Made by a program: the position numbers and the translations under genes
Shown: piece after piece, positions 6,426-53,488 of the stretch
Position numbering within the stretch: position 1 is the stretch's first letter
Layout: each line of letters begins with the position of its first letter
DNA from: Thermodesulfovibrionia bacterium
Lineage (GTDB): Bacteria; Nitrospirota; Thermodesulfovibrionia; UBA6902
Reading direction: 5' to 3'
NCBI GenBank assembly: GCA_030646035.1
Contig: JAUSMY010000040.1
Coordinates: forward strand, 8,081 to 72,080
DNA: 64,000 nucleotides
Notes under the pieces: generated by a model
The model's input: the letters and a program-made list of their open reading frames with translations, nothing else
Databases searched by the model: none
Told to the model about the DNA's origin: nothing

Positions 6426-6852
6426 AGTAGCCGGCAGAGGATTTGGAAGGAACACAAAGCAGAGGAAAGCACTTTTGAGGGGTTTGGTAATATCACTTTT
6501 AACCCACTTAAAGATAGAGACGACCGTTGCCAAGGCAAAAGAGACAAGGAAGATAGCTGAGAAGATAATCACTCTCGGCAAGAAGGGCGACCTGCATGCA
6601 AGAAGGCTTGCGATGTCATCTATTCCTGATGAGAACTCCATCACCAAACTCTTTAATGAAATAGCACCGAAGATAAGCCGCACCAGCGGTTACCTTAGAG
6701 TGCTGCAGACCCGCAACAGGATAGGCGACAATGCTTCAATGGCTGTGCTTGAGTTTGTTGATTATGAGAAGCTCCAGAACAAAGAGGAGATAGAGCAGAA
6801 GGCAAAGAAGAAAGAGGCAAAGGCTGCGAAAGCAGAGACGACAGAAAAGTAA
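6415..6852 (+). CDS. rplQ: 50S ribosomal protein L17
   Basis: 145-aa ORF MRHKVAGRGFGRNTKQRKALLRGLV...; Lys/Ala-rich C-terminal tail; overlaps rpoA end. Confidence 0.93.
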   Translation: MRHKVAGRGFGRNTKQRKALLRGLVISLLTHLKIETTVAKAKETRKIAEKIITLGKKGDLHARRLAMSSIPDENSITKLFNEIAPKISRTSGYLRVLQTRNRIGDNASMAVLEFVDYEKLQNKEEIEQKAKKKEAKAAKAETTEK

Positions 6853-6876
6853 AGTTTAATTAATATAAATCACCCT

Positions 6877-6907
6877 AAGGCCTGTGAGCGATCACAGGCC
6901 TTTTTTT
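6877..6907 (+). terminator. Rho-independent terminator after rplQ
   Basis: aaggcctgtga (6877-6887) pairs with tcacaggcctt (6892-6901) around loop gcga, followed by T7 run; 25 nt after rplQ stop. Confidence 0.8.
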
Positions 6908-6996
6908 GATTTCAACTTTTGACATAAGGGGCGTACTTTAGTTCATCCTACTTGATGGATGGGTTGGGCGTCGGTTACCCGCGGAACATCATTGCT

Positions 6997-7650
6997 TCAT
7001 TGTGCGATCCACTCGTGAGTGCAGCCAGGGTTCTCCTTGATATTGGGGCTGTTGTATAGCCTGGGTTTAATCCCGAATAATAATGGGTTGGTTCCGTAGT
7101 ACCTCATCTGCGCGTAGGCGGTATCCTTACAAAAATTCTTGTTGCGCACGGTATAGGCCGCGATAACCAATCCCGTGCGGTCCTTCCCATGGCTGCAATG
7201 CACCAAGACCGGCCAATTATTTCCTTTCTCTAATGCTTCTATCGCTTGCTTGAGAATATTTTCATCTGGACTGGCCCATGGGTTTAAGTTATGCGGGAAG
7301 TCTTCCGGTTGCATGTAAAGAGGGATTACATTGATATTATGCTTCTTGGCGAGACGAAGTTCTTCTGACTCGTCTGCATCAGACGAGAATTTGTTCAGCT
7401 TGACCACGGTCTTGATGCCTATCTTCTCCAGATAGCACCAATCTGCATCTCCCTTTGGTTGACCGCTTCGGTAGATTGCACCTACACCATCAGTGCCACC
7501 TGGGATTACGATATGGAAGTTATAGACTGGGGCTGGATGCGGATCCTTTATAGCGATAACAGCTGACGGTTGCGTCAATGTCGCGCATGCTGTCAGGATT
7601 AAGCAAACGCCCAACATTGCAAGACGTATAACAGGATATACATTTCGCAT
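6997..7650 (-). CDS. predicted lipoprotein with protein-tyrosine/dual-specificity phosphatase-like domain
   Basis: 217-aa ORF; signal peptide with lipobox LILTAC; HCSHGKDRTG matches the HCX5R(S/T) P-loop of Cys-based phosphatases (codons at 7171-7200); RBS aaggag upstream; sampled lines about 50% GC. Confidence 0.6.
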   Translation of the reverse strand: MRNVYPVIRLAMLGVCLILTACATLTQPSAVIAIKDPHPAPVYNFHIVIPGGTDGVGAIYRSGQPKGDADWCYLEKIGIKTVVKLNKFSSDADESEELRLAKKHNINVIPLYMQPEDFPHNLNPWASPDENILKQAIEALEKGNNWPVLVHCSHGKDRTGLVIAAYTVRNKNFCKDTAYAQMRYYGTNPLLFGIKPRLYNSPNIKENPGCTHEWIAQ

Positions 7651-7763
7651 AACTACTCCTTGCTTTTGTCAGATTTAGGTATCTCTCTCCGCCCAACGCC
7701 GAGCTAACCTGAGCGACGCTGTTTGCCGCGTCTGGTTGAGCGCCGTGTTAGGTGAATGCTGAA

Positions 7764-8444
7764 TCACTTACGTTTCTTATTTACTAGATATGGCAGTGAA
7801 GTCGCGTGTTCAATAATTCCCTCAACCTCATTCGCTTTGCAGCTATGGGCATCCCAATTGCGCCATTTTGACTGCTTAAGCATGACTGTAAGATTCTTCT
7901 TTTCTTTGATATAGCTGAGCAGCTTCGCTACATGTGCCTCCTCTACCACAAGGGAAAAACAATCCGACATGCTAGGTTTGGTTGAGCCGTGCAACCAAGC
8001 TAGGAGTGTCAAATCATAGGTGCCATCCTTAGTCATCTGGTACTCAAATGGGCGTTCAATCGAAGAAGAAAACTGAACCTGCTTAGTGACATTCTCTCCA
8101 CCAAAGACTGTGATAGGAACTGCCAGTGAGTCACGTATTAATTCCCCGCTCTCTCCAAAGGCAAGGTAATAAGCAGGTTCAAGAAGGTAACCCTCGGGGC
8201 TGCCGCTATGCTGGATCAAGAGGGCAACTCTATCAACGGTGAGATGCTTGGAGCCAGCATTCGCAAAATTCACTGCCAAGATGAACGAGACAGGCCCCTC
8301 CAAGTCGTGGCTGATGGCAGTGTGCTCACCAGCGGTGAGATGGAGTTCGCCCATACGAAATTTTGATACGTATAGACTGATAATTGAGCCGAGCAATGCT
8401 ACTATTGAAATAACAATGGGCACTAGATCCTTCATCTCAATCAT
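7764..8444 (-). CDS. membrane-anchored hypothetical protein
   Basis: 226-aa ORF with one N-terminal TM helix (LVPIVISIVALLGSIISLYV) then soluble domain with no motif I recognise; strong RBS ggaggg upstream. Confidence 0.5.
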   Translation of the reverse strand: MIEMKDLVPIVISIVALLGSIISLYVSKFRMGELHLTAGEHTAISHDLEGPVSFILAVNFANAGSKHLTVDRVALLIQHSGSPEGYLLEPAYYLAFGESGELIRDSLAVPITVFGGENVTKQVQFSSSIERPFEYQMTKDGTYDLTLLAWLHGSTKPSMSDCFSLVVEEAHVAKLLSYIKEKKNLTVMLKQSKWRNWDAHSCKANEVEGIIEHATSLPYLVNKKRK

Positions 8445-20817: not shown

Positions 20818-21399
20818 TCAGGAATTGATCTTCCTTATAAGCCATGCCATGTTCTCTCCGAGCTTCTTCATGGTCTCAATCCCTTCGCTGTCATCTTTGA
20901 CCTCGCCCGGTTTTCTTCCGATGCCGATATTCCAGTAGCTTGAGCCGGGGATTATCATCTCCCCTATGAGGAAGAAGTAGTTTAAAGAGCTGAAGACATG
21001 GCTGGCGCCGGCGCGCCGTACGGCGACAACAGCGGCTCCTGCCTTGCGCTTTAACATATTGTCATTGGCGCGTGATACCATGCCTGCTCTTTCGATCAGA
21101 GCCTTCATATTTGCAGAGACATCGGCAAAATAGGTGGGAGAGCCGAGAATGATACCGTCAGCCTCAAGCATCTTTTCGATGCATTCATTTGCGATATCAT
21201 TATCAACGCTGCATCTCTTGTCCTTTTTGTCGAAGCACTTAAAGCATCCGATGCATCCGTGGATAGGCTTGCCTGCCATCTGAAAGAGTTCGGTCTCAAT
21301 GCCTTCTCTGCTTATCTCATCCAGAACAGAATTTAAGAGTATAGCCGTATTTCCGTCTTTGCGCGCGCTTCCGTTAAAACCGATAACCTTCATCTGCAA
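20818..21399 (-). CDS. NADPH-dependent FMN reductase / iron-sulfur flavoprotein family
   Basis: 193-aa ORF; flavodoxin-like N-terminus (KVIGFNGSARKDGNT) and compact Cys cluster (HGCIGCFKC...C) as in Isf-type flavoproteins. Confidence 0.7.
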   Translation of the reverse strand: MQMKVIGFNGSARKDGNTAILLNSVLDEISREGIETELFQMAGKPIHGCIGCFKCFDKKDKRCSVDNDIANECIEKMLEADGIILGSPTYFADVSANMKALIERAGMVSRANDNMLKRKAGAAVVAVRRAGASHVFSSLNYFFLIGEMIIPGSSYWNIGIGRKPGEVKDDSEGIETMKKLGENMAWLIRKINS

Positions 21400-21420
21400 G
21401 GCCTCCTTTGACAGACTGTT

Positions 21421-21969
21421 TCAGCGGATTATTTTTGTGAATTTTGAACCCTCGATGGTCAGGTTGAACATAAGCCCTTTATTGCTGAATACAAAGCCGA
21501 CTATCGGGTCTTCTATATTCATGGTATTGATGTCGCCTCCTTCACCCCATTTCACTATGGCGACTGAGCCGTCTACCCCGGCTTTCCATCCGTCGCTCTT
21601 CCTGAAATCGGCAAGCGCTTTGTTTTCGAGGAATACAATAACTATTGACTTTGACTGCGCCCCGAGCTGAAACCCGATAGATGCTGCGGCTGTGCTGTAA
21701 TATTCTTCTGATTTGCCGTCTATACGCAGCACACCCTCGCCGTATTCTCCGCCTACACCGATGCCTGCTTTTATCACTCCGGAGAAGATAAGCACGCCTT
21801 TTGCTTTTTTGAGAAACTCACTCCCTCCGGGGATCTCTTTCTGGAACTGCGCCAGAGTGGCGTCAGCGTCTATGTTTATCTCATCCCTGCTCTTTGCCTC
21901 TGAGGCGCTGATTCCGGCAAACAATACGATAAAACTAACAACTGCAACAATGGCTCTCTTCATCTTCAT
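21421..21969 (-). CDS. secreted SYLF/Ysc84-like (DUF500-type) lipid-binding domain protein
   Basis: 182-aa ORF with signal peptide; Gly-rich repeated strands (AGIGVGGEYGEGVL, ASIGFQLGAQ) resembling the SYLF fold; tentative. Confidence 0.45.
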   Translation of the reverse strand: MKMKRAIVAVVSFIVLFAGISASEAKSRDEINIDADATLAQFQKEIPGGSEFLKKAKGVLIFSGVIKAGIGVGGEYGEGVLRIDGKSEEYYSTAAASIGFQLGAQSKSIVIVFLENKALADFRKSDGWKAGVDGSVAIVKWGEGGDINTMNIEDPIVGFVFSNKGLMFNLTIEGSKFTKIIR

Positions 21970-21990
21970 GGCATATCTCCTTTTTTTGAA

Positions 21991-23205
21991 TTAGTTATCT
22001 GATTTGACACGCCTGATAAGATCATTTTCTCTCACTCCATCAACAGAAGGGATTGATACGATCTCTTCGTTCCTGCCCACATCAACGTGCTTTCCCTTTT
22101 CATTACATATATCATCCACAATGAATGATCTATCTTCAAGTCCTGTTGACAGGAATTCGACACTATCTCCTGTGCTGAGATTGTTCCTTAATAGGATATC
22201 GATTCTGCCGTTATGGACTGATCTCACTATGCCGACCAGATCATGGCTCATCCTGTAAACATTTTCTTCATTATGATTGTAATCTTCATCAGGCTGCTTG
22301 CCAAGAAACATACCTGTTGTATAACCTCTGCTTGAGATCATGGAAAGTTCTCTAAGCCATCTCTCCTGCACAACGTAGGGACGATCCTTCAGGCTGTCAA
22401 CCGCTTCCCTGTAAGTCTTGATCACTCCGGCAACGTAATTTATGCCCTTCATGCGCCCCTCTATCTTAAAGCTGTCAATCCCTGCATCGGCAAGCTTATC
22501 AAGGTGCTCTAACATGCAGAGGTCTTTTGAGCTCATCATGTATGTGCCTCGCTTGTCTTCATAAACAGGATGAAACTCATCAGGCCGTTTCTCCTCCATT
22601 AGCGTATAGTTCCATCTGCAGGAGTTTGTGCATTCCCCATGGTTGGCAGGCCTGTTGGCGAGAAAGCTGCTGATATAGCACCTACCAGAATAAGAGATGC
22701 ATATTGCGCCGTGGACAAAGCACTCAAGCTCGATTGATACACTGTCGCGTATCTCTTTTATCTCATCGATCGCAAGCTCTCTTGCAAGGACGAGCCTTTT
22801 AGCACCGGCCTTTTCCCAGAATAGGGCGGTCTTAGGGTTTGTGATATTTGCCTGCGTGCTTATATGGATCGGGATCTCCGGCGAGATATCTTTTGCCATC
22901 TCAAAGATGCCGAGGTCAGAGATTATTATTCCGTCCGGTTTTGCCCTTTTTAGAAAGGTTAAATGATCTTTTATCGGAGAGATATCTCTGCTGTGAGGTA
23001 TGATGTTTGCAGTGATATATATTCTTTTGCCTTTTTGATGGACCAGCTCAACGGCCTTTATCAGCCCATCTTCATCAAAGTTACCGGCCTTTGCCCTGAG
23101 GCTGAATTCAGAAAGCCCCAGATATACCGCGTCGGCGCCGTAGTGAAGCGCGGTTATCAGTTTTTCAAAGTTGCCGGCAGGCGCCAGGAGTTCGGGTGTC
23201 TTCAT
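21991..23205 (-). CDS. peptidase U32 family protein (Fe-S dependent hydroxylase-type, RlhA/TrhP/YhbU-like)
   Basis: 404-aa ORF; U32 N-terminus (ELLAPAGNFEKL...GADAVYLG) and conserved Cys cluster (ECFVHGAICISYSGRCY, C..C). Confidence 0.85.
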   Translation of the reverse strand: MKTPELLAPAGNFEKLITALHYGADAVYLGLSEFSLRAKAGNFDEDGLIKAVELVHQKGKRIYITANIIPHSRDISPIKDHLTFLKRAKPDGIIISDLGIFEMAKDISPEIPIHISTQANITNPKTALFWEKAGAKRLVLARELAIDEIKEIRDSVSIELECFVHGAICISYSGRCYISSFLANRPANHGECTNSCRWNYTLMEEKRPDEFHPVYEDKRGTYMMSSKDLCMLEHLDKLADAGIDSFKIEGRMKGINYVAGVIKTYREAVDSLKDRPYVVQERWLRELSMISSRGYTTGMFLGKQPDEDYNHNEENVYRMSHDLVGIVRSVHNGRIDILLRNNLSTGDSVEFLSTGLEDRSFIVDDICNEKGKHVDVGRNEEIVSIPSVDGVRENDLIRRVKSDN

Positions 23206-23229
23206 GGAAGATCATATCTTGCGAACTGC

Positions 23230-23517
23230 CTACTCTTTGGTCCACTCCTGCAGCGTTTCAATGATCTTCTTCGCCTGCTCTTTGCTGGATATGTTGAACT
23301 TGGACCTCTGGCTGTACACCCCGTTGGTCTTCTGGTAGCGGCGGATACTGTATTTCTCTTCTCCGAACGTCTCGTTCTTCTTGTCCCACTGCTGGTATCT
23401 GAACATTAAAGTCGCCCACGCGCCTTTTGAAAGTATCACCTTGTCAAGTTCCTTGACGAGCTGGACATTGTCCTCTTCATAGTTCATTGTTAATTCATTT
23501 ACATCTTCAGCACCCAT
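23230..23517 (-). CDS. hypothetical small protein
   Basis: 95-aa ORF, charged, no recognisable motif; lies between the ParE-like toxin and the U32 gene. Confidence 0.35.
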   Translation of the reverse strand: MGAEDVNELTMNYEEDNVQLVKELDKVILSKGAWATLMFRYQQWDKKNETFGEEKYSIRRYQKTNGVYSQRSKFNISSKEQAKKIIETLQEWTKE

Positions 23518-23634: not shown

Positions 23635-23916
23635 TTATGGGTGTTTTTGAGGGTCTTGTCTGTTATCAAAAACAGAATGAATTACTATTTCGTTTCCTTC
23701 GATAGAATAAAATATTGAAAAAGGAAATCTTCTAATGACACAGCCTCTTAAACAGGAATATAATGTTTTGTACATCTCCGGGAAAGCGAGAATGTTATTT
23801 AGCGATACCTCAATACAGTCGAGAAATTCAAAACCAAGTCCTCTTCTCTGTTTTTCGTACCATTCAAACGCTAATTCAAGGTCGTCTTTAGCCCTGTCTG
23901 TATAGCGCAGAATCAT
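23635..23916 (-). CDS. type II toxin, ParE/RelE family
   Basis: 93-aa ORF; C-terminal RGCVIRRFPFSIFYSIEGNEIVIHSVFDNRQDP matches the ParE/RelE pattern; overlaps upstream antitoxin gene by 4 nt. Confidence 0.7.
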   Translation of the reverse strand: MILRYTDRAKDDLELAFEWYEKQRRGLGFEFLDCIEVSLNNILAFPEMYKTLYSCLRGCVIRRFPFSIFYSIEGNEIVIHSVFDNRQDPQKHP

Positions 23917-24149
23917 TTATATTTATCACGCAGCTCTTCATGAACACTTTTCCAATCATGAAGTTCCAGTTTTCCATCTTTATAATCTTTGTATCTTTTG
24001 TCTAATTCGATTTTTTGCCATTCCGGCATTGGCAGCACTTCATTGTTTCGAGCAATAGCATCCCAAATATCCTCAACTAATAGTAGTTTTTCTGACAAGT
24101 CCAATTTATCTATCTCTTTTACGATTTCATTTGGTCTCATTGTGAACAC
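23913..24149 (-). CDS. putative addiction-module antitoxin (partner of ParE-like toxin)
   Basis: 78-aa ORF with LSxxEKLxLVEDIWDAI and WQKIELDKRYKDYKDGK pattern typical of small antitoxins paired with RelE/ParE toxins. Confidence 0.65.
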   Translation of the reverse strand: MFTMRPNEIVKEIDKLDLSEKLLLVEDIWDAIARNNEVLPMPEWQKIELDKRYKDYKDGKLELHDWKSVHEELRDKYK

Positions 24150-24221
24150 CTCCTATATAAATTTTACAATATTAATATAATCCCACAATGCACGGGTGAG
24201 ACACGTGTCTTTTTGCGCATG

Positions 24222-24770
24222 TTAGGGTTTGGCCTTGTACGTGCTTATGAATTGCTTATATGCGTCCAGTACTTTTTGATATCCTTCTTGCGAACGAGAA
24301 CTAAGAGTGAAGATTAGATAGAAATCACCTTCTTCGCCGTATGACGCTTGCTCCCAGTTTCCCTTTTCTTTCGGGAAAAATGTATACGATTTCAGAAGCT
24401 GACCATCAGCAGTAGTAAGTGAAGTAACTTCAGAAATGCTTAGACTGGGATCTTGTGACATGAACTGCTCTTTGTCATCGCTAATCAACGAATCCATAGA
24501 TTTTATTTCAGGAATTCTTGGCTTGTAAAGCGCCTTCACGTAGATAACTGATTCAGCGTTGGCGAATGTATAACCGTCAGGTGCTTGAGCATTGGCGCTG
24601 TACATGTAACTATGATCACGGTCATGGTGCCAGCCTTTTAAAGTTGGCATCTTGGGCCACCAATAGAAACACACCCCGGTTTCACACGGAACGGCAATTT
24701 TCTCTATCTCAGCATGAGCGCATAGGGGAAGTAACACCAATACGATTAATAGAGCAACGAGACGTTTCAT
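24222..24770 (-). CDS. secreted hypothetical protein
   Basis: 182-aa ORF with signal peptide (LLIVLVLLPLCAHA); no recognised domain; same strand and 75 nt downstream of the ligase cluster. Confidence 0.45.
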   Translation of the reverse strand: MKRLVALLIVLVLLPLCAHAEIEKIAVPCETGVCFYWWPKMPTLKGWHHDRDHSYMYSANAQAPDGYTFANAESVIYVKALYKPRIPEIKSMDSLISDDKEQFMSQDPSLSISEVTSLTTADGQLLKSYTFFPKEKGNWEQASYGEEGDFYLIFTLSSRSQEGYQKVLDAYKQFISTYKAKP

Positions 24771-24845
24771 ATTATCTCCTAACCATATTTTTATTAGATA
24801 GTTATCTGGATAATAACAATATTTCTTAGCAGGGTCAATATAATT

Positions 24846-25556
24846 CTATTTGCAAAGCAGGGCATCGCTAACCGCTTTAATGATATTCGCCTGAAGTTCT
24901 CTCCAGTGCCTCTTATCTCCGACGGGAAATTTCTGATTGACCTCAAGCTCAACCCCGATATACTGTCTCTGCGGGAAACTTTTTCTGAAATATGTCACAA
25001 GACCATCGGCTTTGCCGAGGTAGGGATAATTGCGGCGGACGACGAGATCGTGATTTGAGGCGGTGAGCGCCTTCTGCCAGCGGATGCAGAAATCTTTTTC
25101 TTTCATTCTCGAAGGGTCATATAGCAGCCCAATATCTGCAGTGCGCTTCACGCCATTAATCACAGGCGTAAAGGTATGAACCGCTATGTGCAGAACATTT
25201 TTGCCCGAATGAATCTTTTCTGCAATAACTGATTCAATAGCATTCCGGTAGGGATGGTAGTATTTTTTTAGGATATTGGCTCTTTCATCACGGTCGATCT
25301 TTCGGCTTATTTCAGAAAAGAGGTTCGGATGTTTTAATGACCGGTTCAGGTCAACAAGCAGGCGTGTGATTTCTGAGTAATAACAGCGGACTCCGAGATC
25401 TTCTGCAATGGCTCCTGCGAGTTCATATGAGCCATGATCAAAACCCTTATGGCTCTTCAGCAGTTTTTCTTTGCCCTTGAAAAGATGTGCGTATTCCTGC
25501 GGCACAAGATTGCCGCCGTGTTCGCAGGAGATGATTATCTCAAATGGCTTATTCAA
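24846..25556 (-). CDS. N-formylglutamate amidohydrolase (FGase) family amidase
   Basis: 236-aa ORF; N-terminal IISCEHGGN and overall pattern of the FGase family; start overlaps upstream GCS2 gene. Confidence 0.7.
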   Translation of the reverse strand: MNKPFEIIISCEHGGNLVPQEYAHLFKGKEKLLKSHKGFDHGSYELAGAIAEDLGVRCYYSEITRLLVDLNRSLKHPNLFSEISRKIDRDERANILKKYYHPYRNAIESVIAEKIHSGKNVLHIAVHTFTPVINGVKRTADIGLLYDPSRMKEKDFCIRWQKALTASNHDLVVRRNYPYLGKADGLVTYFRKSFPQRQYIGVELEVNQKFPVGDKRHWRELQANIIKAVSDALLCK

Positions 25557-26787
25557 TGAACACCCTGTTTTCAGCGAGGCATTCGCAAAGTTTTTTATAT
25601 GCCGTTTTCAGCTTTTCATGTGAAGGGTTTCTGCCAATGGATCTGAGTATTCGCTTTGAGAGAGTTCCCTCTTCTGTAATGAGCCTGAGTATTTCAAGCG
25701 ATTCAGAAGAAATGGCGGCTTTCTTTCCGGCTTCAGTTATAAGATGCTTCCACAATTCATTTGCAGTTGCCTTCTTTCCAAAGAATCCGAACATCTCGAG
25801 ATAATGCGCATTCTCAATTACCGCGCTTCCGCTATCGCGTATGGTGCTTTTAAAGACCGGAAGCAATGCGTTCACTCCCCATGCCTTCTGTTCTTCATAG
25901 CCGGACCATTCATCAGCAACAAGAAGTTTTAAGACTGATATGATTATCTCAGCTATGGCGATATCAGCGCGCGGGCATTCCTGCGTATCTGCAATACGTA
26001 TCTCCATCGCGTTTCTCTCGTAACGCGGTATGGCGCCTCTTGAATTGAGCCATTCATTTTGCAGGATATTCTCATCATCATATTCCGCTATATCCCTGTA
26101 CATTTTCCCAAGTATCTTTTCTTTGTATTCAGCCTTTGTGAAGACAGGTTCAGGAATTATCTTTCCCATGATCGAAGGAACCTTCTTCTGGTTTGCGGCG
26201 TAATGCAGAAGCCGCGTATCCTGCAAGCCGGTGATCTTCCCTTCAACAACAGGAGAACTTGCGGCGAGCGCTGGGATCATCGGTAGGAGCAGCCGTACAG
26301 CGGCATGAAGCCTGCCGAATTCATCATCACCTTTGAAAGAGAGATTTATGTGCATGCTCTGGACATTTGCCCAGCCGTGCCTCTTGCAGTTGAATATCCT
26401 GTCGTAGGTTTCGTACACATTATGGTAACGGCGCGCCCATAGCCTGGTCTCTTTTCGGGGGTTCATCCACGGATGCATGGCAGAGGGCATGAGCATTCCG
26501 CCCATCGGGCTGAGGATCTTATTGATGTCTGTTATCTGCTTATGAAATGATTTTGAAAGCCCCTTCAGCGAGGGCACGGGATCATTGTTCTTGATCTCCA
26601 TGACATGAGAGACAAGTTCATTTGACCAGCCCATGCTGCCGTTATAATGATCGGTCGTGTACCGTCCTGCTGCAGAGCGGAGGACTTCGTCGGATACAGG
26701 CATGACATCAAGCGTTTCGCAGTCTGCGATAATATATTCGAGTTCAATGCCGCAGCCTTCAAACAGTTTCAGTCTATTCGCAGCCAC
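25549..26787 (-). CDS. carboxylate-amine ligase, glutamate-cysteine ligase family 2 (GCS2/YbdK-like)
   Basis: 412-aa ORF; N-terminal GIELEYIIAD and length typical of GCS2; overlaps neighbours on both sides. Confidence 0.75.
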   Translation of the reverse strand: MAANRLKLFEGCGIELEYIIADCETLDVMPVSDEVLRSAAGRYTTDHYNGSMGWSNELVSHVMEIKNNDPVPSLKGLSKSFHKQITDINKILSPMGGMLMPSAMHPWMNPRKETRLWARRYHNVYETYDRIFNCKRHGWANVQSMHINLSFKGDDEFGRLHAAVRLLLPMIPALAASSPVVEGKITGLQDTRLLHYAANQKKVPSIMGKIIPEPVFTKAEYKEKILGKMYRDIAEYDDENILQNEWLNSRGAIPRYERNAMEIRIADTQECPRADIAIAEIIISVLKLLVADEWSGYEEQKAWGVNALLPVFKSTIRDSGSAVIENAHYLEMFGFFGKKATANELWKHLITEAGKKAAISSESLEILRLITEEGTLSKRILRSIGRNPSHEKLKTAYKKLCECLAENRVFIE

Positions 26788-26790
26788 AGG

Positions 26791-28266
26791 TTAATACCAT
26801 GTTTCCTTGCGCTGTTCTATCCTGCGCAATATGACACGCATGATCCTCAGGTAGAGCTCTTCTTTGAGTATCGCGTCCTCAACCCCGTAGTCGATGTTGG
26901 GATTGTCGTTCACTTCAATGATGTAATACTTGTCGCCGTCCTGTTTTATGTCGACACCGTATAAACCGTCGCCTATCAGGTTTGCGGCGCGGAGCGCGGC
27001 GCGTATGAGGCCTGTTGGAGCATGCTCCACCGGGATAGTTTCAGCCCTGCCGTCTTCGGTCTTTAAACCGTTCAGGTCGCGTTTTATTATCTGCCAGTGT
27101 TTTTTAGCCATGTAATATTTGCATACAAAAAGCGGCTGCCGATCAAAGACGCCGACGCGCCAGTCAAAAGGTGTTGACAGGAATTCCTGGGCGATTATCA
27201 GCTCTGAACGGTCGAGCATCTTCCCCACATTCAGCCTCAGTTCTTCCTCAGTCTCAACCTTTATGACACCCTGTGAGAACGAACTGTCCGGCTTTTTCAG
27301 GATGCAGGGCAGACCGAGCATACCGGTTATCTGTTTTGCATTTTCGCGGTGAACGATGACCGTCTTTGGAGTCAGCATCTTGTTGCGCTCAAGCAGTTCC
27401 GCAAGAAAGACCTTATTGGTACACTTCAGTATGGACTCAGGATCGTCAATAACAACCAGTCCCTCTGCCGCAGCCTTGCTTGCAAAGCGGTATGTATGAT
27501 GAAGTACGCTTGTGGTCTCACGGATGAAGAGCGCGTCAAACTCGCTGAGCCTGCCGAAATCTTCCCTGTCGATAAGTTCCGCTTCCATTCCGAGAGATTC
27601 CGAAGACCTTATGAAACGTTCGATAGCTTTCGGGTTTGAAGGCTGTTCCTCTTCATCTTTATCAAAGAGGATAGCGAGGTCGAATCGCGGCGCCTTTTTT
27701 CTGCTGGTGTATTTCCGCCTCTTCTGGAAATACTCACTTGCGGCTTCAACCACAAAAGCGCGATGCTCTTCAGGGATGTCGTTCACTGCGATGGGATTAA
27801 TATTCTGTATCTGCCATTTCTGCTCTTTGTCATTAAAGACAAATATAGCCCGCAGAAATGGAGACTCAAAAAGTTTGAATAGATGGTTGCAGAGCGGGTC
27901 ATGCCTCTTTGCCATATTCCGTCCAAAATAAATACTGAGCACAAACTCTGTCGACTGGATAGGGGCAAGGCTCTTCTGAATAAGTTCTTCAACTTCATCA
28001 GAAGCAACCCGTATGATGGTCTGGGATTTAAGGTCCTGTATCGTGCTGATGCTCGGAATGGGCTTGTGCCCCCTTGCGGCGGCAAGCAGCGAGACATAGT
28101 AGCCGGTGCTCTGATACCGGTAGGACCGGCAGAGATTGAAGACCTTCACGTCACGCATCGCGGCATAGCCCGGATCGGTAAGATAGGTCTTTGCAGCTAC
28201 AAGTTCACTTCCTTCAAAATGGATCGGAAGGTCGCTGGGGTCATTGACGACTATAAGTATTGCCAA
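26791..28266 (-). CDS. RimK-type ATP-grasp ligase with N-terminal extension domain
   Basis: 491-aa ORF; C-terminal ATP-grasp core (GLPCILKKPDSSFSQGV, LIIAQEF, YYIIEVNDNPNID); about 190-aa N-terminal domain. Confidence 0.75.
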   Translation of the reverse strand: MAILIVVNDPSDLPIHFEGSELVAAKTYLTDPGYAAMRDVKVFNLCRSYRYQSTGYYVSLLAAARGHKPIPSISTIQDLKSQTIIRVASDEVEELIQKSLAPIQSTEFVLSIYFGRNMAKRHDPLCNHLFKLFESPFLRAIFVFNDKEQKWQIQNINPIAVNDIPEEHRAFVVEAASEYFQKRRKYTSRKKAPRFDLAILFDKDEEEQPSNPKAIERFIRSSESLGMEAELIDREDFGRLSEFDALFIRETTSVLHHTYRFASKAAAEGLVVIDDPESILKCTNKVFLAELLERNKMLTPKTVIVHRENAKQITGMLGLPCILKKPDSSFSQGVIKVETEEELRLNVGKMLDRSELIIAQEFLSTPFDWRVGVFDRQPLFVCKYYMAKKHWQIIKRDLNGLKTEDGRAETIPVEHAPTGLIRAALRAANLIGDGLYGVDIKQDGDKYYIIEVNDNPNIDYGVEDAILKEELYLRIMRVILRRIEQRKETWY

Positions 28267-28275
28267 TCTTCTTCC

Positions 28276-28986
28276 TTACTTTGCCTTCTTGGGTTCGATG
28301 ATGAGCAGGTTTGCGTCATAGGTCAGAACTCCAAGAAGTACAGAACACAAAACCCTGTCTATTGAGATCATATAATGATGGCTGTCGGAATACGGGTTCG
28401 CGAGAAAAGGGTCAGCCACCATGACGGTCCGCTCTTCCCTGTTATATCCGTTCAACACGACAAAATGCCCTGCAGGCTCTCCCTTTATATCATCCCAGTC
28501 GTTCATCTGTCCTGATTCCCTCGGGCTCTGGTAAAGATATGTTGAACTGAGGCCCGTTAAGATCGGAGCGGCGCGGTTCAGGTATTTTCTTATAAGCGCT
28601 TTGGTCAGGTCCTTTAATCTCAGCTTGCCGCCAAGCTGCAGGAATTCAAGAAAGCCTTCTGTTGCCACATGGAGTTTGGGAATATCCTTTGCCGACATCT
28701 GTGCTTTTAAACGTTCCTGTATATCCGGCCCGTCGTCCGCAAACCATGTCGGGTCAAAGATGTTGAGGTTGTATGTGTAGATCGTTGCGGTATATCCGCG
28801 GTTCAAGGCATGGCATGCCAGAAACACGGCAAGTGTGCCGCCCTCATCAAGATACTTTACCTCCTGGACAACCTGATCCAGCGAGATATTGTCCCCGAAA
28901 TAATTATAAACTGCGTGCAGGCATGCCGGGCCGCATGTTGTCTCAGTTGGCTGGGCTAAGATATTGAAATCAAGGCTTTGTTTCAC
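28276..28986 (-). CDS. papain-like cysteine peptidase (C39-like)
   Basis: 236-aa ORF; candidate catalytic Cys in TTCGPACLHAV and downstream His (GHFVVLNGYN) as in C39-like peptidases. Confidence 0.55.
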   Translation of the reverse strand: MKQSLDFNILAQPTETTCGPACLHAVYNYFGDNISLDQVVQEVKYLDEGGTLAVFLACHALNRGYTATIYTYNLNIFDPTWFADDGPDIQERLKAQMSAKDIPKLHVATEGFLEFLQLGGKLRLKDLTKALIRKYLNRAAPILTGLSSTYLYQSPRESGQMNDWDDIKGEPAGHFVVLNGYNREERTVMVADPFLANPYSDSHHYMISIDRVLCSVLLGVLTYDANLLIIEPKKAK

Positions 28987-29088
28987 TTGCTGAAATAGGT
29001 CATGTCATCACCTTATCTTTGGGTCGATCACTCAGTTATTATATAACTTAAACTTTACCAAAAATCAATTTAACTTTTCCTAACTGTC

Positions 29089-30426
29089 TCAATCAGATTT
29101 CTTCTTAAACGGTATCAGATCATATACAAGCCCTATTGTCGGTGTTGTGCTGATTACCTTCAAAAATAGTTTTGAATATGGGATGTGCTCAACCTCCCTG
29201 ACCTCCCTGAGTTTTGGAATGAAGATAAACGAGGCTATATACCTGATGATGCAGCTCACAACAAATACCAGAAGGTAATTCGACCAGAATATCTGATTGT
29301 AGCGTACTATCAGGCCGCCGATTAGGGAGCCGGCAAATATGGCAACACCGTTAATGACATTGTAATATGCGATGCCGGTCGCCCTTTTTTGAGGTGTTGT
29401 TGTGTCAAAGATAAAATTAAAGGATGCTATCTCAAAACCTGCCCAGACAAAACCGGCATAGATCTGGACTGCCAGAAGATACCAGACCGAACTGGAAAAG
29501 AGCCAGAGAATAGGCGCAAGAGGCATTAAGAAACCTGATAGGCTCAGTACCTTTCTTGAGCCGAACCTGTCGGATGCCTTGCCCCAGACAGGCATGAAGA
29601 GGAGTTTTGAAATGATGGCAGCCGCAATGATGATGGTATATGTTGAGTAGCTGAATTTCAGGTCGTTCAGCATATAGGGAGTAAAGAACGGCGCTGACAT
29701 ATAGACGCAGGAATTCATTAAAGAGAGGTAAAGCACAAATGTGCCGTAGTTACGGAATCTCGCCTGTCTGATGAACTCAACAAAACTGAATTCAGCTGAT
29801 TCAGACACTTCATACGGCGGTTCGTACTTTTTCCTAAGGAAGAAAAATGAGGCTATTCTCGAAATAAGCGCAAGTGAAAAGATCGTGACAAAGCCTATAT
29901 ACTGCATTTCAGGCGTGCTTGAAAAATTCTGCAGAATATATCCGCCTGCCATGTAAGCTGAGAATGTTGCAAAGCCTGTTACCTTGTTCCTCATGCCGAA
30001 GTAAGCGCCGCGCTCGTTTTCATTCACAAGGTCGCCCATCCAGCTGTTCCATGCCGGGCTGAGTATCATGCCGAATAACCAGTAAAGGCAGGCAAAAAAT
30101 ATCAGATGAGCGATACGGAATGTTCCGAAGAAGAATACGAGGGATATTGGGATATACATCAGACCCTGGAGCAGGGCTGCTGTTGAGACGAGATTTTTCC
30201 GCGATCCAAAAAGCCTGATAAGCCTATTTGAGTAAAGCTGCGATAGTGAACCTATCAGCAGAGGCATGGAGCTTAACAGGCCGAGGTTTATGTTGGTTGC
30301 TTTGAGAAAGACTGCGAAAGCAGCTAGAAAAGATTCTCCGAAACCTATCATAGATGCGGCAAAGGTCCCGTCAATGATAGAGTAATGAAGGCTCTTCTTT
30401 ATCCTGTCACTGCCGTTAGTCTTCAT
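29089..30426 (-). CDS. MFS family transporter
   Basis: 445-aa ORF with about 12 predicted TM helices and MFS-like loop motifs. Confidence 0.8.
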   Translation of the reverse strand: MKTNGSDRIKKSLHYSIIDGTFAASMIGFGESFLAAFAVFLKATNINLGLLSSMPLLIGSLSQLYSNRLIRLFGSRKNLVSTAALLQGLMYIPISLVFFFGTFRIAHLIFFACLYWLFGMILSPAWNSWMGDLVNENERGAYFGMRNKVTGFATFSAYMAGGYILQNFSSTPEMQYIGFVTIFSLALISRIASFFFLRKKYEPPYEVSESAEFSFVEFIRQARFRNYGTFVLYLSLMNSCVYMSAPFFTPYMLNDLKFSYSTYTIIIAAAIISKLLFMPVWGKASDRFGSRKVLSLSGFLMPLAPILWLFSSSVWYLLAVQIYAGFVWAGFEIASFNFIFDTTTPQKRATGIAYYNVINGVAIFAGSLIGGLIVRYNQIFWSNYLLVFVVSCIIRYIASFIFIPKLREVREVEHIPYSKLFLKVISTTPTIGLVYDLIPFKKKSD

Positions 30427-30597: not shown

Positions 30598-31713
30598 TTG
30601 AAGATATTAAGTGTAAACACAGGAAGTTCCTCTGTCCGTCTTGCCGCATTTATCAATTCAGGCAGCGTGCCTAAAAAGCTGGCTGACAGACATATAAAGC
30701 TGAACGAGAGTACACCCGAGGCAATTCTGCGGGCTTTTGTTAATGAAAGCAATTTTAAGGATGTTCAATGCATTGCCCACCGTGTCGTTCATGGAGGCAC
30801 AAAACTCCTTCAGCCATGTCTGATAAATAGTGAAATCGAGAATGAGATCAACCGCCTTTCACCTATGGCGCCATTGCACAATCCATCGGCTTTGAAATGG
30901 ATCCGCATATGCCGCGAATTATTCGGGCAGAATGTTCCGCAGGTTGCGGTCTTTGATACAGCCTTTTATTCTCAGATGCCTGAAGTTGCAAAAACGTACG
31001 CTTTGCCTCGTGATATTTGCATAGAGCACGGGATACGGCGTTACGGCTTTCACGGCCTTGCTCACAGCGCCATGCTTCAGAGATGGCAGGGAATACGGCC
31101 TGATATTAAATACGGGGGCAGGGTGATATCGCTTCAGCTTGGCGCAGGCTGTTCGATAACTTCTATAAGAGATGGCAAAGCTGTAGATACCTCAATGGGC
31201 TTTTCTCCTCTTGAAGGTCTGGTCATGGCAACACGCTCAGGAGATATTGACCCTGAGATATTATTATTTCTTCAAAAGTCCGGAGGCCTTACAGCAGATG
31301 AGATACATAAAATGCTGAGCGAGTCCTCAGGTTTATTGGGTTTATCAGGCATCAGCAATGATATGCGTGTGCTGCTGGAAAGCGACGCACCTGAAGCGCG
31401 CCTTGCAATTGATCTTTACTGCTACCGCGCAAGAAAATATATAGGTTCATACCTTTCAGTTCTCAACGGGGCTGATGTAATTCTCTTTGGCGGCGGGGTA
31501 GGGGAGAATGCTTCGTTGATAAGAGAGCGCATTCTCCATGATATGAAATGGTGCGGCATAGAGCTTGACCGCCGTATTAACAATGATACAATTGGTATTG
31601 AAGGGCGCATCACTTCATCTTCAAGTAAAATTGAAGCGTGGGTGATTTCAGTAGACGAAGCCGCAGTTCTTGCAAAAGAGGCGTTTACAGTTATAGGAGG
31701 GTTAAATGAGTAA
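30598..31713 (+). CDS. ackA: acetate kinase
   Basis: 371-aa ORF; [17 protein letters not shown]-terminus, HRVVHGG and FDTAF motifs. Confidence 0.85.
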
Positions 31714-34078
31714 TGTTTTATCCGCAGAGCAATTACAGTTAATGAATGCTTACTGGCGCGCGGCAAATTATCTTGCCGTGGGGCAGATATATCTTTATGA
31801 TAATCCGCTCCTGAAGGAACCTCTGAAGATAGAGCACATCAAGCCGAGGCTGCTCGGCCACTGGGGCACGACTCCGGGGCTCAATTTTATTTACGTTCAT
31901 CTCAACAGAATTATAAAGGAGCATGACCTGAATGTGCTCTACATTGCCGGCCCCGGTCACGGCGGCCCTGCGATCGTTGCCAACACTTATCTTGAAGGAA
32001 CGTACAGCGAGGTCTATCCGCATATTTCTCAGGATGCCGACGGGATGAAGAAACTCTTTAAACAGTTCTCATTCCCCGGCGGAATTCCCAGCCATGTAGC
32101 GCCTGAGACACCGGGTTCGATACATGAAGGAGGTGAACTCGGTTATGCTGTTTCTCATGCCTACGGCGCGGTATTTGATAACCCCGGCCTTATCGCTGCC
32201 TGTGTCGTCGGAGACGGAGAGGCTGAGACAGGACCGCTTGCCGCTGCCTGGCATTCAAACAAATTTCTAAATCCTGCGCGCGATGGAGCAGTATTGCCGA
32301 TACTTCATCTGAACGGATACAAGATAGCCAACCCCACACTTTTGGCAAGGATCAGTCATGAGGAGCTTGAAAAGCTTTTTATCGGGTATGGATATAAACC
32401 GTATTTTGTTGAAGGGTCTGACCCCGAAGTCATGCATGAGCTGATGGCTTCGACCATGGATACAGTTTTTGCCGAGATAAAATCGATACAGGATAGTGCC
32501 CGTTTAAATGGGGTTACAAAACGGCCGATGTGGCCTATGATCATTATGCGGACGCCAAAAGGCTGGACCGGCCCGAAGGTAGTTGACGGCAAGAAGACCG
32601 AGGGTTCATGGAGGTCGCATCAGGTTCCGTTTTCAGAAATGACTGGCAATCCCGGCCACATCAAACTTCTTGAAGACTGGATGAAGAGCTACAGGCCTGA
32701 AGAACTTTTTGATGAGAAAGGCATGCTTAAACCCCAACTGTCTGAACTCGCTCCAAAGGGTGAAAGGCGTATGGGCGCAAATCCTCATGCCAACGGCGGT
32801 GCGCTCCTCAAGGCTCTAAAGATGCCTGACTTCCGCGATTACGCGTTAAAGGTAGATGCACCAGGGCAGGTTGAGGGAGAGGCAACACGCGTTATGGGAT
32901 ACTTTCTGCGGGATATAATGAAGCTCAATATGAAGAGCAGTAACTTCCGTGTCTTCGGCCCGGATGAGACAGCATCAAACCGCCTCGGCGCGCTCTTTGA
33001 AGTGACAGACCGTGTATGGATGTCTGATACGATTCCTGAAGATGACCACCTCTCTCCTGACGGGCGCGTGATGGAGATACTGAGCGAGCATACGTGCCAG
33101 GGCTGGCTTGAGGGCTATCTTCTCACAGGCAGGCACGGGCTTTTCTCATGCTACGAGGCATTTATCCATATCATTGACTCGATGTTCAACCAGCACGCAA
33201 AGTGGCTGAAGGTCACGTCAAAGGAGATACCATGGCGCCGTCCTATTGCGTCTCTTAATTATCTCCTGACCTCGCATGTATGGAGGCAGGACCATAACGG
33301 CTTCAGCCATCAGGACCCGGGCTTTATCGATCATGTGGTGAACAAGAAGGCGGACATCATCCGCGTTTATCTTCCGCCTGACGCAAACACACTTCTCTTT
33401 GTGACAGACAAATGTCTGCGAAGCCGTAACTTCATAAATGTTATTGTCGCTGGCAAACAGCCTGCACCTCAGTGGCTTGACATGGATGCTGCTATCAAGC
33501 ACTGCACATACGGGATAGGCATATGGGAATGGGCAAGCAATGACAGGGGTTCGGAGCCGGATGTTGTCATGGCATGTGCCGGTGATGTCCCTACACTTGA
33601 GACACTTGCCGCAGTGGACATCCTCCGCCAGCAGGTGCCTGATCTAAAAATACGGGTCATCAATATTGTTGACCTCATGACGCTCCAGCCGAAAGAGGAG
33701 CATCCGCATGGGCTCTCGGACAAAGACTTTGACACTCTCTTTACTAAGGATAAGCCGATAATATTTGCGTATCATGGTTATCCATGGCTTATCCACCGCC
33801 TCACCTACAGAAGGACGAATCACAAGAACCTCCATGTCAGGGGATACAAAGAAGAAGGCACCACCTCAACTCCGTTCGATATGGTCGTCTGTAATGACCT
33901 GGACCGTTTCCACCTTGTTGCTGATGTGATAGACCGCGTAGCGGATCTCGGCTCTGTCGCAGCTTACACTAAACAGTTTGTTCGTGATAAACTCATTGAG
34001 CATAAGCAGTACATCAAAAAGTACGGCCAGGACATGCCTGAGATCCGTGAATGGACATGGAAACGAAATAACAGCTGA
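31706..34078 (+). CDS. xfp: xylulose-5-phosphate/fructose-6-phosphate phosphoketolase
   Basis: 790-aa ORF; phosphoketolase signature regions ([15 protein letters not shown]; ThDP fold); overlaps ackA by 8 nt. Confidence 0.9.
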
Positions 34079-40749: not shown

Positions 40750-40824
40750 GCGGGTGTAGCTCAGTGGTAGAGCACAACCTTGCCAAGGTTGGGGTCGAGA
40801 GTTCGAGCCTCTTCACCCGCTCCA
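40750..40824 (+). tRNA. tRNA-Gly (anticodon GCC)
   Basis: Cloverleaf folded by hand: acceptor GCGGGTG/CACCCGC, anticodon loop cuuGCCaa, T-arm GGTTCGA-type (GTCGAGAGTTCGAGCCTC), encoded CCA. Confidence 0.85.
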
Positions 40825-42684: not shown

Positions 42685-42760
42685 GGCGACGTACCCAAGT
42701 GGCTAAGGGGGAGGTCTGCAAAACCTTTATTCAGCGGTTCGAATCCGCTCGTCGCCTCCA
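42685..42760 (+). tRNA. tRNA-Cys (anticodon GCA)
   Basis: Cloverleaf folded by hand: acceptor GGCGACG/CGTCGCC, anticodon stem-loop gaggt-cuGCAaa-acctt, T-arm AGCGGTTCGAATCCGCT, encoded CCA. Confidence 0.8.

Positions 42761-53411: not shown

Positions 53412-53488
<77 letters not shown>

Follow-up and report, generated by a model that had tools for sequence, protein, structure and literature searches.

We asked which of the closely spaced minus-strand genes at this locus belong together, and what a group that combines two ATP-dependent ligases with two hydrolases would make. The window, meaning the whole stretch of 64,000 nucleotides that was analysed, comes from a metagenome-assembled Thermodesulfovibrionia genome. 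The initial annotation described five minus-strand genes with overlapping or near-abutting boundaries, followed by a gene for a secreted protein. An ORF check of the window bore this out to the nucleotide: six minus-strand ORFs are present, the families proposed for the five genes all have Pfam matches above gathering scores, and the ORF after the FGase gene encodes a 182-aa protein with a typical Sec signal. The genes, with a neighbouring toxin-antitoxin pair, are as follows:

29089..30426, minus strand: MFS transporter, 445 aa, patchily linked neighbour, non-core (Pfam MFS_1)
28276..28986, minus strand: C39-like papain-fold cysteine peptidase/amidase, 236 aa, core gene 1 (Pfam Peptidase_C39_2, Peptidase_C39)
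26791..28266, minus strand: RLAN-RimK ATP-grasp ligase, 491 aa, core gene 2 (Pfam RLAN and RimK)
25549..26787, minus strand: GCS2 / YbdK-type carboxylate-amine ligase, divergent, 412 aa, core gene 3 (Pfam GCS2)
24846..25556, minus strand: FGase-family metal-dependent amidohydrolase, 236 aa, frequent fourth gene (Pfam FGase)
24222..24770, minus strand: secreted/periplasmic protein, 182 aa, without family match, outside the cassette (Sec signal)
23635..24140, minus strand: toxin-antitoxin pair with a ParE-family toxin, outside the cassette (Pfam ParE_toxin)

The C39-like and RLAN-RimK genes are separated by 9 nt (28276/28266) and the RLAN-RimK and GCS2 genes by 3 nt (26791/26787), while the GCS2 and FGase genes overlap by 8 nt (25549/25556), with the FGase start lying over the GCS2 stop. 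The four core genes are translationally coupled in the window. The MFS gene lies 102 nt upstream of this cassette, across a gap that holds no ORF and carries the sequences TTGATT and TATAAT with a 19-nt spacer between them.

Four genes form the conserved unit

Relatives of RLAN-RimK occur at a minimum of 598 loci in a one-genome-per-species collection, and neighbourhoods were counted in the best 80 of these at least 598 related loci, from more than 10 phyla. In this set a C39-like gene lies directly upstream of RimK at 65 of the 74 evaluable loci, a GCS2 gene directly downstream of RimK at 65 of 68, and an FGase gene after GCS2 at 39 of 59, FGase being absent in about one third. No consistent replacement gene was found at the FGase-less loci among the best 80 of at least 598, and clustering of flanking ORFs of at least 70 aa across the same set returned, beyond the four core families, only antisense artefacts in high-GC loci. 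The window has the same arrangement, with C39-like upstream, GCS2 downstream and FGase after GCS2 on one strand. Because cassette order and strand recur in loci of more than 10 phyla, the four-gene arrangement is not due to chance. We conclude that the conserved unit consists of the genes for C39-like peptidase, RLAN-RimK, GCS2 and, less strictly, FGase, which for the window corrects a unit of six genes to one of four. The cluster as initially drawn held together for these four and came apart at the MFS transporter and the secreted protein. We give next to no credence to the idea that six unrelated genes lie side by side here by chance. The genes for the MFS protein, the secreted protein and the toxin-antitoxin pair do vary from locus to locus, but the order, strand and tight spacing of the core are kept at the frequencies given above, which refutes the idea for the four core genes.

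Identity to the nearest relative falls from RimK through C39 and GCS2 to FGase (94, 90, 80 and 75%), and the same ranking is found across phyla (about 57, 55, 47 and 45%), where identity is very high, at 54-81% for RimK and 45-75% for C39. Catalytic or metal-binding residues are intact in all four enzymes and at least 97% conserved. Together, the co-conservation of the neighbourhood and the retention of catalytic residues provide good support for a dedicated ligase/hydrolase module. This module is self-contained and cytoplasmic, and it makes and cleaves amide bonds.

The MFS protein (Pfam MFS_1, 120.9 bits) had been counted as the cluster's exporter, and its distribution does not sustain that role. 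Only two of its 80 close orthologues adjoin a cassette (31-71% identity, metagenomes) and the other 78 are not near one, which rejects it as a core part. Among the best 80 of at least 598 cassette loci a related MFS gene occurs only in L001 and L034; it adjoins the cassette in L001, L088 and L109, and in L034 (Phycisphaerales) it takes another position, directly after GCS2. The gene is absent from relatives at 94% and 85% identity, the former having a CNNM-domain gene at that position. Related MFS genes became linked to the cassette in two phyla, each time independently: upstream of it in Thermodesulfovibrionia and after GCS2 in Phycisphaerales. The MFS orthologues have no conserved neighbourhood of their own, and no linkage of ackA or xfp to the MFS gene was found. 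Export of the product is at best weakly suggested.

The 182-aa protein has a typical Sec signal, read from its sequence as MKRLVALLIVLVLLPLCAHA/EIEK, and no Pfam, NCBIfam or PADLOC match. Its gene has a promoter-like site of its own, with TTGACC, a 17-nt spacer and TATTAT at 24838-24810 in the 75-nt gap after FGase. Beyond it, a small antitoxin ORF (24140-23913) overlaps the ParE-family toxin ORF (23916-23635; Pfam ParE_toxin, E 1e-9) through ATGA. No homologue of the 182-aa protein was found at the best 80 of at least 598 cassette loci, and the gene is absent from the closest relative, which is 94% identical and has an orf95 homologue directly after FGase. Synteny with this relative (locus L164) shows that the 182-aa gene and the toxin-antitoxin pair are an insertion, which separates FGase from the genes that come straight after it there. 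The secreted protein, which adjoins none of the other cassettes in that set and shares its insertion with the ParE pair, is dropped from the cluster.

Enzymes of the cassette

The larger ligase matches RLAN with 170.2 bits (cutoff 25) and RimK with 35.3 bits (cutoff 21) in Pfam, with RLAN (PF14401) at about residues 1-185 and a complete RimK-type pre-ATP-grasp and ATP-grasp region at about 200-480. The same architecture, N-terminal RLAN followed by a RimK-type domain, is present in 120 of the 120 homologues listed, and the catalytic residues K324, D439, E451 and N453 are at least 97% conserved. In a structure model, RLAN resembles a partial ATP-grasp fold that lacks the nucleotide-binding lysine, as a catalytically dead version of that fold might; its invariant surface motif is RSYRYQSxGYYVSLLAxARGH. 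An internal duplication of the RimK part was rejected as its origin (hhalign probability 0.35%), so the similarity between the two parts is structural only.

By sequence and structure, the closest characterised relatives of the ATP-grasp domain are RimK, which polyglutamylates ribosomal protein S6, and the LysX/ArgX enzymes that act on LysW. These enzymes add glutamate to a C-terminal carboxylate. The match to them is distant: the cassette protein reaches 64.1 bits with the RimK family alpha-L-glutamate ligase model (TIGR00768, rimK_fam; cutoff 143.4) and 67.3 bits with the NCBIfam LysX model (cutoff 275.6), and RimK and LysX structures in the PDB are matched at E 4.6e-5 to 1e-3 only. Unlike RimK, which is accompanied by RimA and RimB in Pseudomonas, and unlike LysX, the cassette has neither rimA/rimB nor lysW/lysZYJK and carries RLAN as an extra module; rpsF is absent from the window. 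Francisella FTT0178, annotated as 'rimK', encodes 490 aa, a length at which it may belong to the RLAN-RimK family; its deletion is not attenuating in SCHU S4, and it is disrupted in type B strains.

The third core protein is a glutamine-synthetase-like fold enzyme with 95.9 bits to Pfam GCS2 (cutoff 21). It falls outside the YbdK subfamily model TIGR02050 (53 against 176.4) and the NCBIfam gshA equivalogs (16-38 against 249-427), and the profile of its orthologues matches YbdK (1r8g) at E 0.012 only. Across 57 sequences, conservation reaches at least 97% at E15, E17, E57, H61, E64 and a set of Arg positions. The FGase protein scores 84.3 bits with Pfam FGase (cutoff 28.9) and 16.4 with the HutG equivalog TIGR02017 (cutoff 278.75), with no hut genes near it in the window. 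Its closest solved structure is the uncharacterised Atu2144 (2odf; E 1.3e-19), and E12, H13, D40, R65, N71, R72, H123 and H127 are conserved in 23 sequences. To our knowledge, the only characterised FGase activity is on a small N-acyl-glutamate.

The C39-like protein scores 50.5 bits with Peptidase_C39_2 and 35.7 bits with Peptidase_C39, both above Pfam gathering scores, and its orthologue profile matches the C39 domains of ComA and PCAT1 in the PDB (E 2e-5 to 5e-4). C39 domains are best known as leader peptidases. Like those of ComA and PCAT1, the cassette enzyme has the fold signature, the Gln/Cys/His/Asp residues and the N-terminal motif QxxxxxCGxxxL, and its putative catalytic residues Gln12, Cys18, His174 and Asp192 are at least 97% conserved in 44 sequences. 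In contrast to them, it is stand-alone and soluble, carries an inserted stretch of about 90 residues that separates the Cys lobe from the His/Asp lobe, and is linked to ligases; neither an ABC transporter, fused or adjacent, nor a double-glycine precursor is present in the window, and no ABC transporter or small precursor ORF is conserved around the cassette at the best 80 of at least 598 loci. The peptidase is cytoplasmic, and its sequence shows neither a signal peptide nor a membrane segment. All four proteins stay below the cutoffs of the NCBIfam equivalogs with an assigned function, so these models give no basis for naming a substrate.

A proposed gamma-glutamyl peptide and its alternatives

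We tentatively propose, at close to even chances, that the cassette carries out cytoplasmic synthesis and turnover of a short gamma-glutamyl peptide in the style of glutathione; in this scheme we infer what the substrates are, in which order the steps run, what each hydrolase does and what kind of product results. GCS2 would use ATP to activate a carboxylate, for which the gamma-carboxyl of glutamate is the likeliest candidate, and would join it to an amine. The RimK-type ATP-grasp enzyme, in a family whose usual donor is glutamate, would then extend a free alpha-carboxylate by at least one amino acid to give a short gamma-glutamyl-type peptide, with RLAN as a docking or regulatory module. The two hydrolases would degrade or trim the peptide: the FGase-type enzyme may remove or release an N-acylated terminal glutamate, and the papain-fold enzyme may cleave the other amide bond, or transfer it as phytochelatin synthase does. 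With ligases making the peptide and hydrolases breaking it, its level would be set by a cycle, as in glutathionylspermidine synthetase/amidase.

Several observations are consistent with a small product. GCS2 and ATP-grasp form the same enzyme pairing as GshA and GshB, NCBIfam gives weak matches of the GshB/GshA type, some sources label orthologues 'glutathione synthase', and the one characterised FGase activity is on a small molecule. There is no room for a precursor-peptide gene at the junctions of 9 nt, 3 nt and the 8-nt overlap, and the 102-nt gap is free of ORFs. That an MFS gene joined the cassette twice points weakly to a small molecule that is transported. The six proteins matched no defence-system model in PADLOC, the RimK gene was not found on phages, and no RNA-element signal was found. 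The reading first suggested for this locus, in which a small amide-linked or glutamylated product would be made non-ribosomally and then trimmed, is a reasonable one.

The main alternative, which we regard as rather unlikely, is reversible protein modification, in which a conserved cellular protein encoded elsewhere would receive a glutamate or short peptide tail, either at its C-terminus or on an acidic side chain. RLAN-RimK would be the writer, possibly with GCS2 starting a side-chain branch, and the C39-like peptidase and the FGase-type (carboxypeptidase-fold) enzyme would be erasers, in analogy with RimK on S6, TTLL and CCP on tubulin, and PafA and Dop in pupylation. By analogy, too, the closest characterised RimK-clade enzymes would argue for it and against a small peptide: S6 RimK acts on a protein, and the LysW-dependent LysX/ArgX enzymes on a carrier protein. 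Conservation is unusually high and graded from RimK to FGase, and the cross-phylum identity of RimK and C39 together with RLAN, whose invariant surface motif could dock a macromolecule, would be explained no less well if the enzymes recognise a conserved macromolecule. In peptide-tag systems the erasers are usually papain-fold peptidases. The lack of FGase in about one third of loci and the rarity of the transporter link count against a small peptide, and the best 80 of at least 598 loci share no transporter or tailoring gene alongside the cassette. On the other side, the neighbourhoods of those best 80 loci contain no conserved target or carrier protein, the data name no target, the known FGase enzyme has a small-molecule substrate, and pairing of GCS2 with ATP-grasp has a direct small-molecule precedent in glutathione.

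Ordinary biosynthesis and degradation of glutathione or gamma-glutamylcysteine by divergent GshA and GshB analogues draws on the same enzyme classes, on the label 'glutathione synthase' that some database sources give to the ATP-grasp orthologues, and on weak NCBIfam matches to glutathione synthase and glutamate-cysteine ligase models. We give it very little credence. The GshB equivalogs score far below cutoff (NF003573, 17 against 272; NF009110, 34.8 against 408), as do the gshA models, the best ATP-grasp matches are LysX and RimK rather than GshB, and two dedicated hydrolases and RLAN are foreign to glutathione pathways. The cassette is presumably also found in bacteria with canonical gshAB, such as Legionella and Thiobacillus. 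Maturation of a ribosomal peptide or bacteriocin, with C39 cutting a double-glycine leader, ATP-grasp modifying the core and MFS exporting it, deserves scarcely any. ATP-grasp ligases do modify graspetides, and such ligases are among the structural neighbours of RLAN; the C39-like profile matches ComA and PCAT1, and an MFS gene adjoins the cassette in the window. Nevertheless, the cassette and its flanks hold no precursor gene and leave no space for one, no small or other neighbouring ORF was found conserved at the best 80 of at least 598 loci, the peptidase is stand-alone and cytoplasmic without ABC transporter fusion, the ATP-grasp domain falls in the RimK/LysX clade rather than the graspetide clade, and conservation of the cassette does not extend to the MFS gene.

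Relation to known systems

Iyer, Abhiman, Burroughs and Aravind (2009, Mol Biosyst 5:1636) reportedly predicted, on purely computational grounds, amidoligase-peptidase systems that combine RLAN-RimK ATP-grasp ligases with COOH-NH2 (GCS2) ligases, and are said to have left open whether the outcome is a new peptide metabolite or a protein that carries a peptide modification. We take the cassette to be one of these systems, and the Pfam RLAN model PF14401 presumably derives from the same work. Those systems reportedly share the domain families and the kind of neighbourhood found here, with RLAN-RimK, a glutamine-synthetase-fold ligase and peptidases. The present analysis adds conservation figures gene by gene, leaves the MFS and secreted-protein genes out of the unit, recognises an ATP-grasp-like fold in RLAN and contributes a member from Thermodesulfovibrionia. 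Full-text searches of the literature turned up neither experimental work on the cassette nor any paper that deals with this combination of genes, with RLAN/PF14401 or with what PA1345 does.

Glutathione biosynthesis by GshA and GshB resembles the cassette in using two sequential, cytoplasmic ATP-dependent ligases of the same two fold classes, with a gamma-glutamyl first step that is plausible for the cassette too. It differs in that neither cassette ligase reaches a GshA or GshB equivalog cutoff, in that the cassette ATP-grasp enzyme is of the RimK/LysX type with RLAN, and in that the cassette operon encodes two dedicated hydrolases. In the glutathionylspermidine synthetase/amidase of E. coli (Gss), an ATP-dependent carboxylate-amine ligase is joined to a papain-like cysteine amidase that undoes the same bond, and a cycle sets the product level. 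The Gss amidase is a CHAP domain fused to the ligase, whereas the cassette peptidase is C39-like and separate; the cassette also has a second ligase and a second hydrolase. We claim no sequence relationship between the two.

It is quite possible, if somewhat short of probable, that the cassette represents a widespread mechanism whose product has not yet been described, either a new gamma-glutamyl peptide or a reversible glutamylation code on a conserved protein. Within that reading, the first option would be a glutathione-like, low-molecular-weight peptide in anaerobes, Planctomycetota, Verrucomicrobiota, Legionella and others, and the second would make RLAN a substrate-docking module. The module is small, self-contained and easily expressed, so the question of its product is tractable, and most of the best 80 of at least 598 RLAN-RimK loci, in more than 10 phyla, carry its two ligases and two hydrolases. 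Should the cassette make a small gamma-glutamyl peptide, this would add a metabolite to those known from cells, one that might serve as a redox buffer, metal binder or osmolyte; should it make a protein tail instead, it would be a bacterial counterpart of reversible polyglutamylation.

A conserved four-gene cassette

The ORF listing of the window contains six consecutive ORFs on the minus strand, all at exactly the coordinates of the initial annotation, which had read the first five as a coupled functional unit followed by a secreted protein.

Genes of the cluster
29089-30426, minus, MFS transporter (445 aa; Pfam MFS_1)
28276-28986, minus, C39-like peptidase (236 aa; Pfam Peptidase_C39_2 and Peptidase_C39)
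26791-28266, minus, RLAN-RimK ATP-grasp ligase (491 aa; Pfam RLAN and RimK)
25549-26787, minus, GCS2 ligase (412 aa; Pfam GCS2)
24846-25556, minus, FGase-type amidohydrolase (236 aa; Pfam FGase)
24222-24770, minus, secreted protein (182 aa; classical signal peptide, no family match)

The five Pfam assignments all exceed the gathering score, and NCBIfam linked no protein to a functionally defined family, its matches all falling far short of cutoff. An NCBI entry from a metagenome-assembled Thermodesulfovibrionia genome (Nitrospirota) matches the RLAN-RimK protein at 100% identity. The C39-like and RLAN-RimK (hereafter RimK) genes are 9 nt apart, RimK and GCS2 are 3 nt apart, and GCS2 overlaps FGase by 8 nt.

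Searching a collection with one genome per species turned up at least 598 loci with a gene for an RLAN-RimK relative, and the 80 best were fetched, with RimK 54-81% identical to the window protein. Culturable carriers of the cassette include Thiobacillus thioparus DSM 505 (L043) and Blastopirellula marina DSM 3645 (L037). These 80 include Nitrospirota, Desulfobacterota, Verrucomicrobiota, Planctomycetota, Acidobacteriota, Bacteroidota, Fibrobacterota, Ignavibacteriales, Spirochaetia, Myxococcota (Nannocystaceae), Nitrospinota, Tectomicrobia, Sumerlaeota, and Alpha- and Gammaproteobacteria (as grouped here, e.g. Thiobacillus and Gallionella). When these best loci were searched with the window proteins by tblastn, the gene order was kept: a C39-like gene immediately preceded RimK in the same orientation in 65 of 74 evaluable loci, GCS2 directly downstream of RimK in 65/68, and FGase after GCS2 in 39/59. 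Loci without FGase had no consistent substitute in its place, and clustering of flanking ORFs at the 80 loci yielded no further gene family common to more than a handful. We conclude that the true unit is four genes, C39-like, RLAN-RimK, GCS2 and FGase; chance juxtaposition of the genes is unlikely. The proposed functional unit thus holds for these four co-conserved genes, and the exporter and secreted protein lie outside it.

Legionella adelaidensis carries RimK-GCS2-FGase. In Pseudomonas aeruginosa and Azospirillum, a more distant RLAN-RimK protein (43-46% identity) is encoded on its own, with no C39, GCS2 or FGase gene beside it. Standalone examples are P. aeruginosa NZ_CP133752.1 (5905-7494 of locus L165) and an Azospirillum brasilense megaplasmid (locus L167); the P. 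aeruginosa gene has the glutamate/aspartate ABC transporter, ggt and pagP nearby and converges on a gene for a PLP-dependent aminotransferase. Identity to the nearest relative, locus L164, is 94% for RimK, 90% for C39, 80% for GCS2 and 75% for FGase, and across phyla it is roughly 57, 55, 47 and 45%, respectively (L164, L161 and the 80 loci). RLAN-RimK is conserved on a par with many housekeeping proteins, yet the distribution of the cassette is patchy.

Neighboring genes

Among the 80 best cassette loci, an MFS homolog adjoins the cassette only in L001, where RimK is 81% identical, and in L034, from a metagenome-assembled Phycisphaerales genome. The L034 homolog (6451-7842; phmmer E 3.9e-53), which the end of GCS2 overlaps, takes the usual FGase position rather than the position seen in the window, and it ties this type of MFS gene to the cassette a second time, independently. 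For the converse comparison, 80 loci with MFS orthologs (31-71% identity) were fetched from metagenomes; only two (L088 and L109) had the cassette beside the ortholog, and the orthologs at these 80 loci had no conserved neighborhood of their own. Because adjacency was rare in both directions, we rejected the MFS transporter as part of the cassette. The 102-nt gap between the MFS and C39-like genes holds a −10-like TATAAT, so transcription of the cassette may be independent of the MFS gene. Beyond a 171-nt gap, an acetate kinase gene and a 790-aa ORF overlapping its end (30598-34078, plus strand) point away from the MFS gene; the ORF is phosphoketolase-like, as judged by eye, and the pair showed no linkage to MFS orthologs elsewhere.

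In L164 the gene order is CNNM-domain gene, C39, RimK, GCS2, FGase, orf95, U32 peptidase, Ysc84, FMN reductase. The same downstream genes occupy 20818-23517 of the window, with orf95 94% identical, and FGase and orf95 are separated there by further genes, including a toxin-antitoxin pair.

23635-24140, antitoxin/ParE toxin pair, between FGase and orf95

The antitoxin and ParE genes overlap through an ATGA start/stop at 23913-23916. Since FGase directly adjoins orf95 in L164 and 23635-24770 of the window is extra, the 182-aa gene and the toxin-antitoxin pair are an insertion. A separate promoter-like site precedes the 182-aa gene, and membership of the secreted protein in the unit was not borne out. 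The small block conserved downstream of the cassette in both genomes (window 20818-23517; L164 5471-8292) consists of orf95 (no family), the U32 peptidase, for which the best NCBIfam match is TrhP, under cutoff, a Ysc84/SYLF-domain protein and an FMN reductase. Rfam recognized three tRNA genes in the window and nothing else; near the cassette there was no riboswitch or other RNA element.

40750-40821, plus, tRNA gene
42685-42757, plus, tRNA gene
53412-53485, plus, tRNA gene

Features of the cassette enzymes

None of the four cassette proteins has a signal peptide or membrane segment, indicating that their chemistry is cytoplasmic. In the C39-like protein, Gln12, Cys18, His174 and Asp192 are kept in at least 97% of orthologs, and the ortholog profile hits ComA and PCAT1 in their C39 domains. 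Those domains are roughly 150 aa, whereas the cassette peptidase is a stand-alone protein about 90 residues longer, with an insertion of that size separating the Cys lobe from the His/Asp lobe. The insertion has invariant positions (W81, F115, G119-G120, P141, L146, T149, L151, R156-E157 and D165) and may be a specificity cap. GCS2 conserves a Glu15/Glu17/Glu57/His61/Glu64 cluster and several arginines, and its ortholog profile reaches YbdK at no better than E 0.012; by sequence, it is a deep branch of the family. FGase conserves Glu12/His13, Asp40, Arg65, Asn71/Arg72 and His123/His127 and is closest to the structure of Atu2144, a protein without characterization, rather than to HutG.

The ligase conserves Lys324, Asp439, Glu451 and Asn453. 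In the structural model, RLAN looks like a partial ATP-grasp fold that would correspond to the pre-ATP-grasp domain plus a central-domain-like half and would lack the ATP-binding lysine; by sequence and model secondary structure, its strand-loop SIYFGRN occupies the place of the RimK ILKKPDSSFSQG. When the profile of RLAN was aligned to that of the RimK portion of the ligase, the match was not significant, so their relationship shows in structure only. The RLAN motif RSYRYQSxGYYVSLLAxARGH is the most invariant of the whole protein, a pattern that would fit a binding surface.

Possible products of the cassette

GCS2 ligases, which have the glutamine-synthetase fold, convert a carboxylate, usually the gamma-carboxyl of Glu, into an activated acyl phosphate, and ATP-grasp ligases of the RimK clade add an alpha-amino acid, usually Glu, to a carboxylate. 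FGase enzymes hydrolyze N-acyl-glutamate, the sole FGase substrate known to us being a small molecule, and papain-fold enzymes act on peptide and isopeptide bonds by hydrolysis or transfer. By family, then, the cassette encodes two amide-bond makers and two amide-bond breakers. We tentatively prefer a product that is a short gamma-glutamyl-type peptide, which the two ligases would build in sequence, as in glutathione logic, and which the cassette's own hydrolases would recycle, much as glutathionylspermidine synthetase/amidase recycles its product. This reading draws on three points: neither a precursor gene nor a target gene lies within or beside the cassette, the FGase substrate mentioned above is a small molecule, and a related MFS transporter was recruited twice independently. 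Canonical glutathione synthesis is unlikely, as is a peptide maturation (RiPP or bacteriocin) system.

The main rival, in which a conserved protein from another locus would be reversibly glutamylated, is in our view somewhat less likely. It gains from the closest characterized RimK relatives, which modify proteins, from the unusually high and graded conservation (RimK > C39 > GCS2 > FGase), and from the extra RLAN module, which could dock a macromolecule; the lack of a nearby target gene and the MFS recruitment instead favor the small peptide.

A possible data point comes from a candidate relative, Francisella tularensis FTT0178 'rimK' (490 aa), deletion of which gave no attenuation and which is disrupted in Francisella type B strains. 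PADLOC and phage searches on the cassette were negative, and an open-access literature search returned no text on RLAN/PF14401 or on the C39/RLAN-RimK/GCS2/FGase combination.

Iyer et al. (2009) reportedly defined the RLAN domain and predicted this kind of system computationally. The window cassette joins this widespread, computationally predicted and experimentally uncharacterized kind; it is ordinary as a genomic find, yet a tractable target for a new peptide metabolite or protein modification.
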